Below are positions 22,729 to 22,923 of a stretch of 64,000 nt of DNA, piece by piece. A program made the position numbers and the translations under genes. Position 1 is the first letter of the stretch, and each line of letters opens with the position of its first letter. The notes under the pieces were generated by a model. The model was not told where the DNA came from. It searched no databases and saw nothing but the letters and a program-made list of their open reading frames with translations. This DNA is from Myxococcota bacterium. GTDB lineage: Bacteria; Myxococcota_A; UBA9160; UBA4427. Location of the stretch: contig OZ252299.1 in assembly GCA_965250285.1 (NCBI GenBank), positions 1,600,001-1,664,000 of the forward strand, written 5' to 3'.

Positions 22729-22764
22729 AAAGAAGAACGCCCCGCCGGCGAACCGACGGGGCGT
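22729..22764 (-). terminator. Rho-independent terminator
   Basis: Minus-strand ACGCCCCGUCGG-UUCG-CCGGCGGGGCGU followed by UCUUCUUU; the one non-Watson-Crick pair is G-U only on the minus strand. Confidence 0.8.
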
Positions 22765-22889
22765 CAAAGGGGGAGGGCGGTGGACTCTTTAATGGGGGGT
22801 GAGAGGTTGGACATTTCCGAGAGAAATGACCAATCCACCGCCGCTCCGAAACCCTTTGCTTCCTCAGTCTGTGGTCGCGGTCACGACCT
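22729..22889 (-). ncRNA. Candidate roughly 160-nt structured small RNA (or attenuated leader)
   Basis: Own sigma70 promoter, long internal stem, C-rich loop and UUCG-capped intrinsic terminator in an AT-richer intergenic gap. Confidence 0.6.
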
Positions 22890-22895
22890 TGAATG

Positions 22896-22923
22896 ATTAT
22901 GGCTGGCTGGCCTCCGATGTCAA
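22896..22923 (-). promoter_or_regulatory. sigma70 promoter (minus strand)
   Basis: TTGACA-N16-CATAAT on the minus strand. Confidence 0.65.

Follow-up and report, generated by a model that had tools for sequence, protein, structure and literature searches.

Between a phosphodiesterase gene (21288..22637, minus strand; PF01663) and miaB (23095..24651, plus strand; TIGR01574 above cut-off), the window, by which is meant the whole 64,000-nucleotide stretch of DNA that was analysed, carries on its minus strand a gene for a small RNA. A sigma-70-type promoter, TTGACA-16-CATAAT (22896..22923), which matches 11 of 12 positions, is the single promoter-like site in the 1.2 kb around the gene, where shuffled sequence gave 0.1, and the predicted primary transcript (22729..22889, about 160 nt in this genome) is hinted at by contigs of an RNA library, run X1, and of run X5. 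It starts with a variable 5′ leader (22854..22889) that has a genus-specific hairpin at 22888-22873, allows no alignment beyond the genus and ranges in length across homologues from almost none to more than 200 nt. It ends in an intrinsic terminator with a U tail (22729..22765), the hairpin of which has 13 bp and a UUCG cap (22765-22736).

Judged from 50 homologues, the conserved unit is a core of about 125 nt (22853-22729) that extends from GGAG (22847) through the terminator, and BLAST matches to the RNA always start at about 22853. In the alignment of these 50 copies a long stem made of GGAG, a bulge and GGCGGUGGA is paired with UCCACCGCC-CUCC, and the terminator lies 3′ of it. The 5′ strand of the stem in the window (GGAG, bulge, GGCGGUGGAU) occupies 22833..22847, with 97-99% of alignment cells paired and two-sided changes in three to four pairs; the 3′ strand (GUCCACCGCC-CUCC), as placed by the fold and by both alignments, is at 22772..22785. 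Enclosed are an 8-bp inner hairpin, GUCAUUUC / GAAAUGUC (22807..22833; two-sided changes in 4/8 and 5/8 pairs in the two alignments), and a nearly invariant single strand of 16 nt, the seed AACCUCUCACCCCCCA (22793..22808), which is marked out by its conservation and is unpaired on average 61-100% per position in 86 homologues. The terminator has two-sided changes in 9/12 and 12/12 pairs in the two alignments.

The predicted fold has a free energy of -85.5 kcal/mol (z = -7.14), and none of 200 shuffled sequences folds equally well. The promoter, stems, C-rich strand and terminator named in a preliminary description of this DNA are all present where it had placed them. Its helices likewise all occur in the fold for this genome, but three of them are not family-wide: the 5′ hairpin (GGUCGU/GCGACC), the extension of the long stem (CAAAGGG/CCCUUUG) and the closure of the loop (CUCU/AGAG) are common to the genus or to part of the family only. 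Its remark that no convincing ORF lies inside also holds, since the possible GTG and ATG starts are altered in some homologues; a small ORF in the core was rejected because indels in the A-rich part of the alignment shift its frame.

Transcripts and a probable shorter form

Nine runs recorded as RNA contain part of the stretch, and six of them, together with one run of unknown kind, were examined. These runs were chosen because they contain the stretch, and their contigs derive from relatives in mixed samples and carry neither strand nor level. With that reservation, a single 154-nt contig of run X1 spans 22733-22886 with six differences, there being nothing else on 4.5 kb; the uncovered flanking genes are not taken to be silent, because the organism sequenced is a relative. 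Seven bases downstream of the -10 box, at 22889, lies the end of a contig of run X5, and contigs of run X3 cross the promoter. The ends near 22889 and 22733 fit the RNA of about 160 nt that had been envisaged.

Run X2 points to something shorter. In its contigs a sequence recognised as library adapter directly abuts 22852 at one side and 22768/22769/22770 at the other, and depth is 53 over the short form compared with at most 4 elsewhere. The molecule ends seen in contigs fall outside the long stem, which the preliminary description had put forward as a possible RNase III substrate, and delimit a closed stem-loop (22769..22852) that is the probable processed form of about 84 nt, with the flanking UU and the phage copies considered below as further indications. 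The 5′ end is one base before this UU, which lies just 5′ of the stem and is kept in 85 and 82 of 89 copies. RNase E prefers U at +2, a preference with which the 5′ end partly fits, and genes for RNase E/G and RNase III are present in the genome. Altogether the contigs hint at a transcript of about 160 nt, from about 22889 to the terminator, that is trimmed to the closed stem-loop, though the short form comes from one library of unknown selection, in which a strong hairpin could by itself have produced artefactual ends.

A class-wide family independent of its neighbours

BLAST found the RNA in 56 of 61 genomes (its own and those of relatives up to order level), with a single strong match in each except for two in G049. 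The exact seed is present in 71 of 78 genomes of the class in an even draw and in none of 323 other genomes of the phylum, and so constitutes a class-specific marker. It is also present in 50/50 copies of alignment A1, which were collected by similarity to the query, and in 88/90 of alignment A2, 78 of which were collected with the seed motif itself. Searches with the covariance model R1 recovered full-length copies from each of the two orders of the class; outside it there were terminator-type matches only, and none of 122 outgroup genomes yielded a homologue. The stricter filters also missed the divergent copy of G045, so that distant members may have been overlooked. Upstream of miaB in outgroups the model found no such RNA in 22 of the 25 loci fetched and the motif found none in the 25. 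Paralogues in the same genome were considered and rejected, the next-best matches of R1 being terminators. Metagenomes gave 80 loci with the seed, 65 of which adjoin miaB; among 13 that the stem pattern left unclassed, one (L520) is a miaB-linked member and one (L486) a phage-like copy, and the others are mostly without an enclosing stem beyond background, L525 and L489 being borderline.

Conservation and covariation in relatives, which the preliminary description had proposed as a check, were both found: 97.7% of cells are paired in 88 distinct copies, with two-sided changes in 21 of 34 pairs. None of 500 shuffles reaches the observed value and slid partners give 45-51%. The 88-copy alignment was fitted to the model, and an independent MAFFT alignment agrees.

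A divergent copy of chromosomal type (L459:381-480, plus strand; 23.5 bits with R1) has a longer inner hairpin and, as is usual in the family, a convergent VWA_CoxE gene beside it, with 52% identity to that of the window. The lineage to which it belongs is either absent from the 401 genomes sampled or present among them and unrecognised.

Is the RNA a gene in its own right or the leader of whatever follows it? In this genome 92 nt separate the terminator from the start of the phosphodiesterase gene, which has the same orientation, and this speaks for the alternative raised in the preliminary description, an attenuator or riboswitch leader. That arrangement is a peculiarity of the genus. The phosphodiesterase gene follows the RNA in only 2 of 50 loci, as a genus-specific insertion, and of 38 downstream ORFs selected and scanned, 23 are a convergent VWA_CoxE gene (18624..20042, plus strand, in the window; PF05762), the usual neighbour in relatives, with no constant co-oriented gene. 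On this synteny a leader or riboswitch role is excluded for the family; in addition the terminator covaries as a fixed helix and Rfam scans match no riboswitch family at the locus, bearing out the statement that no riboswitch is recognisable, and even for the phosphodiesterase gene of this genome such a role is hardly credible. In the window, 20059-22637 holds an SGNH-type gene and the phosphodiesterase gene, which converge and together form an insertion that separates the VWA gene from the RNA, and a phosphodiesterase at this insertion was seen in the own genus only.

The neighbour that does not change is miaB, divergent from the RNA in 49/50 loci and in 11/11 further ones, a matter of context and not of targeting. 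Of 50 homologous loci, 42 have a -35/-10 pair upstream of the core and another 4 an extended -10 form, compared with none of 25 outgroup regions upstream of miaB. As the distance from promoter to core varies between 7 and 263 nt, the leader with its 5′ hairpin is free to vary. The RNA thus has its own promoter and its own intrinsic terminator, independently of flanking genes, as expected of a trans-acting sRNA.

Comparison with catalogued RNAs gave no identity. At the gathering threshold Rfam 15 has no family at the locus, Pxr and 6S included, and the window yields only three tRNA genes (36905-36977, 44543-44616 and 58331-58404, all plus strand, by Rfam gathering scores); the phage and divergent copies discussed below also match no family at that threshold. 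The best Rfam score at the locus is for Spot 42 (RF00021; 26.9 bits, E 0.0044, gathering score 80), a match that rests on the terminator and hairpin shape and whose long helix pairs the seed, against the covariation of the family. A literature search, including one with the seed sequence, did not find the RNA named, a listing in some supplementary table of predicted RNAs being possible. From comparative sequence evidence we conclude that this is a real, uncatalogued sRNA gene kept across one class of uncultured Myxococcota, presumably UBA9160.

Complements of the seed at translation starts

The complement of the seed, GGGGGG(UGAGA), coincides with conserved ribosome-binding sites of ftsA, ftsZ and a gene for an H1-like protein. 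Scored over the 22 nt before the start in class genomes with the usual loop, G6 is present at the ftsA site in 22 of 26 and at the ftsZ site in 20 of 25, compared with 1 of 27 outgroups for each, and both sites often read GGGGGGUGAGAG. Median predicted duplexes are -23.0 and -22.4 kcal/mol for ftsA and ftsZ, against -10.7 and -10.3 in outgroups. Among control genes, ftsQ of the same operon has G6 in 0/21 and miaB in 1/50, the figure for all genes of the own genome being 2.1%. Lying 3-10 nt ahead of the start, these G-runs are themselves the Shine-Dalgarno regions. For the H1-like gene a hand count (3 of the 29 being found via the G-run itself, with 50 of 90 rows fetched) gives G5 or longer in 29/29 genomes where the gene was found, G6 in 23/29 and GGAGG in 0/29; a strict pattern did not find the gene in 30 outgroup genomes, so that the comparison for this site is confined to the class. 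A second gene starting with MAARK has mostly retained GGGAGG.

Scans that start from the seed converge on the same genes. In the own genome, with starts from a simple purpose-made gene caller, the seed-complement 9-mer GGGGGGUGA precedes five starts where 0.2 would be expected. Two of them belong to ftsA (leader at G000:C1:2763326) and ftsZ (leader at C1:2764703), two to H1-like genes rich in lysine, one of these with its leader at C1:1256558, and the fifth to a DUF502 gene. A gene-blind scan of five genomes for GGGGGGUGA-ATG gave 23 matches, compared with 3 in a reversed control, and three of the matches belonged to ftsZ, two to ftsA and three to the MAARKK H1-like gene. The H1-like target gene itself lies between a bS22-like gene and rpoZ (G000:C1:1255470-1257446; L207), and the second H1-like gene of the genome, at C1:4073222 (minus strand), has the same GGGGGGUGA site.

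A G-rich Shine-Dalgarno region could of course simply follow the ribosome. The 3′ end of 16S rRNA is the ordinary GGAUCACCUCCUUUCU. At 29 sites, the base after GGGGG-UGA is the seed-like G in 21 and the 16S-like U in one, and the sites therefore follow the seed and not the 16S tail; at starts across the own genome that base is G in 10 and U in 8 of 35. Several counts set the background for this. GGGGGG is enriched 5.7-fold before starts of the own genome (104 genes), as a minority form of Shine-Dalgarno, and GGGGGGAU-ATG is common in three genomes. Genome-wide, strong duplexes within -50..+25 are commoner than inside genes and rarer than on the antisense strand. As the class genomes are kin, the ftsA and ftsZ pattern may reflect one ancestral event. 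Nevertheless, G-run complementarity is restricted to lineages that hold the RNA, and an sRNA of this sort should have just such a conserved single-stranded seed, with complements at translation starts that are conserved as well. The proposal that a trans-acting RNA pairs with G-run ribosome-binding sites is in this way supported by conservation of the complements.

The genes originally suggested as its partners did less well. Orthologues of ihfA have G6 in 0/30 and reach -18 kcal/mol in 2/30, and the cNMP gene ranks 550 of 5155 in its own genome. The suggestion of merR is half borne out, with G6 before some start codon in 13/27 but without the UGAG extension; a merR-family gene behind ihfA (window 41222-41236) has a G5-G7 run before its start in 18 of 27 class genomes. 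A top candidate in the own genome, parA/soj, was set aside, as G6 is not conserved there (7/31). Behind nrdJ (L662-L680) a G6 run lies at most 150 nt after the stop in 11 of 19 genomes, often as a hairpin loop, and in none of two f10 and three f13 genomes; a site in such a hairpin would be a target or a sponge.

Family f10 contains divergent RNA copies with changed loops (G053 and G045). In G053, where the RNA has no clear terminator, the loop is AAGGUUUCGCCCCCC and the ftsA and ftsZ sites are of GGAG type. Its H1-like site, GGGGGGUGAAACCUU, is predicted to pair with that loop without a break over 15 positions (-30.9, as against -21.1 with the usual loop), and the 12-mer concerned occurs in that genome only at this site and in the RNA gene. 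The pair would be a natural compensatory case, in one genome. Against too ready an acceptance, three genomes in which the loop is of the usual kind (G014, G043 and G050) also have AAAC after the G-run of their H1-like gene, and the same 12-mer occurs by chance in G012 and G045. A match in G045 itself (loop AAUCCCCCC, ftsA GGGGGGAUU) was rejected as unspecific. In the f10 RNAs (L078 / L306:409-541 and L307:3187-3322) the loop is altered and the terminator is either weak or missing, and in these small genomes of lower GC the RNA system may be decaying or being retargeted.

Proposed mode of action, relatives and phage-like copies

The reading that we consider probable is that the RNA pairs with the G-run sites of ftsA, ftsZ and the H1-like gene without Hfq, blocks their translation and so restrains division and nucleoid packing. 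It would be made from a housekeeping promoter, running from about 22889 to the terminator, and be trimmed to the closed hairpin of about 84 nt by a 5′ cut at G-GUU, probably by RNase E, the 3′ end of the product lying a few bases beyond the stem. Pairing would begin at the open CCCCCC against the G-run and extend through UCUCA-UGAGA, so covering the Shine-Dalgarno region, and loading of 30S subunits on the ftsA, ftsZ and H1-like messages would be blocked. Pairing so rich in G-C may make a chaperone unnecessary, by analogy with 6C RNA; profile searches of the own genome, 95% complete, found no Hfq, CsrA (PF02599) or Ro60 (PF05731).

Given the same pairing, a different outcome is an unlikely but sensible proposition: the RNA might stabilise or activate its mRNAs, balance FtsA against FtsZ in the dcw message, or be held by a sponge such as the nrdJ hairpin. 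A conserved, constitutive-looking sigma-70 promoter would be unexpected if the RNA strongly repressed essential genes, the frequent hairpin-loop G6 behind nrdJ would suit a sponge, and CCC often comes after the H1-like site and could fold back on the G-run. Set against this, the sites are Shine-Dalgarno regions, the covering of which normally blocks initiation, as is described for 6C, DicF and DinR. It is also rather improbable that the complementarity is a by-product, the G-runs being a lineage-specific Shine-Dalgarno variant and the seed binding a protein or the ribosome as an anti-Shine-Dalgarno look-alike or decoy. The seed does resemble the 16S 3′ end (UCACCCCC compared with UCACCUCC), G-run sites are generally enriched before starts, and helix sequence is kept beyond the needs of pairing, 5 of 14 long-stem pairs never varying. 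What speaks for pairing instead is the seed-like base after GGGGG-UGA already described, the lack of a G-run at control genes in the same genomes, and the changed sites in f10 genomes with a changed loop.

There is very little likelihood that the RNA is the missing 6S RNA or another RNA that binds RNA polymerase. As with 6S there is a single copy, class-wide, with a long stem and an open region; the only RF00013 match in the own genome, of 21.6 bits (cut-off 46.4), is inside a cyclase ORF, and the approximately 50 nt between zapA and the next gene (G000:C1:6183921-6183975; L276) leave no room for 6S. Nonetheless no 6S match appears at the locus at E up to 10, the core of about 84 nt with a one-sided bubble differs from a model of about 187 positions with a two-sided one, and the conserved mRNA complements would be left unexplained. 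Two other RNA types were rejected. A Y RNA is partnered by Ro60/Rsr (TROVE) and has a fixed bulged C in its terminal stem, whereas the own genome has no PF05731 and the bulged base here varies (C, U, G, AA). Decoys of CsrB/RsmZ type present GGA motifs in their loops to a CsrA encoded by the same genome, whereas PF02599 is absent from the own genome and the conserved GGAG is paired.

Several known RNAs are comparable in their mode of action with the one proposed here. RepG of Helicobacter and CJnc190 of Campylobacter, whose hosts have no Hfq, use a loop rich in C and U to pair with G-rich leaders. The latter is reported to be cut from longer precursors, as the short form here would be; both are from another phylum with other targets, and neither has an Rfam match at the locus. 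Another is 6C / B11 of Actinobacteria, reported from a high-GC host without Hfq, as here, with a six-C unpaired run that pairs with G-rich ribosome-binding sites of several targets, G-C-rich pairing without a chaperone, and cell-cycle effects (PMC6486639); complementarity of a C-run to such sites and the lack of Hfq are seen here as well. According to the same source 6C has two C-rich hairpin loops and the targets panD and dnaB (PMC6486639), in contrast to the one 16-nt C-rich strand in the bulge of a closed stem here, in a different phylum, and no 6C match was found at the locus at E up to 10.

DicF of the E. coli Qin prophage and DinR of Klebsiella are reported to be processed sRNAs that pair at the ftsZ ribosome-binding site and inhibit division (PMC5069750, PMC10907235); they are also described there as Hfq-binding, narrowly distributed and cut from mRNAs (PMC5069750, PMC10907235). 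The present RNA differs in being a core-genome gene with its own promoter, class-wide and without Hfq found, the target sites of which have apparently changed with it. Within Myxococcota there is Pxr, an sRNA of about 110 nt that shares a C-run next to a G-rich stem strand and long and short processed forms. It differs in that its promoter, downstream of pxrK/pxrR, is of sigma-54 type, that it folds into three separate stem-loops, the first of which has the C-run in its loop, and that it is restricted to Cystobacterineae (PMC5684412, PMC5568312, PMC11928866). The promoter here is of sigma-70 type and divergent from miaB. The Pxr model RF01812 has no match in the own genome at E up to 10, and none in 151 sampled genomes, among which no positive control was detected either. 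On the best reading, the RNA would work like 6C/B11 or DicF and be a member of neither.

Phages may have made use of the same hairpin. Six viral contigs have the exact seed, by estimate a number no greater than chance in that collection, and accordingly it is the enclosing stems and not the seed matches that carry the case. Compared with random positions of the same contig, stems as strong were found at 0/296 for L457, 1/281 for L458 and 4/291 for L456, and the 17-bp stem of L486, on a metagenome contig with a phage exonuclease, is equalled at 0/245; scores with R1 are 53.6, 33.5, 22.0 and 32.9 bits, respectively. All four are phage-like copies of the core with the exact seed and without a terminator: L457:3130-3215 (plus strand) in a T4-like replication module with sliding clamp, clamp loader and RegA, its stem sequence being shared with the host family; L458:5985-6083 (minus), viral by collection only; L486:1722-1807 (minus); and L456:2765-2835 (plus), with terminase and portal genes. 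In L457 and L486 the ORF layout is clear and the copy lies between co-oriented genes. That the terminator is missing fits the core being the working unit. A wider viral scan of 50 loci scored only the known T4-like copy, and a similar-looking candidate, L600, was rejected as it is inside a reading frame. These four copies appear phage-borne, as DicF is (PMC5069750), and phages carrying the core would halt host division with it, as that prophage RNA does.

A larger scenario can be put forward tentatively, and with doubt prevailing: that throughout the class the Shine-Dalgarno sites of ftsA, ftsZ and the H1-like gene were turned into G-runs read by one core-genome RNA, trimmed to a terminator-less hairpin of about 84 nt, thereby coupling division to nucleoid compaction, and that unrelated phages, one T4-like, captured this hairpin and express it within operons to arrest division. 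To our knowledge the known ftsZ-targeting sRNAs are Hfq-dependent, stress- or prophage-specific, and enterobacterial. If the pairing reading is true, ftsA, ftsZ and a chromatin protein would share one regulator that belongs to the core genome and needs no chaperone, in an uncultured class that is widespread, and its targets, the candidate natural compensatory case among them, could be identified from the sequence by itself. Should the phage copies be genuine captures, phages would have borrowed a host sRNA, which would also offer a route to assigning hosts to those phages. A further small conserved basic protein of the class, of about 70 aa (G000:C1:5118605, plus strand; L381:220-435), has no Pfam match, and its C-terminal part presumably resembles the bacterial histone fold.
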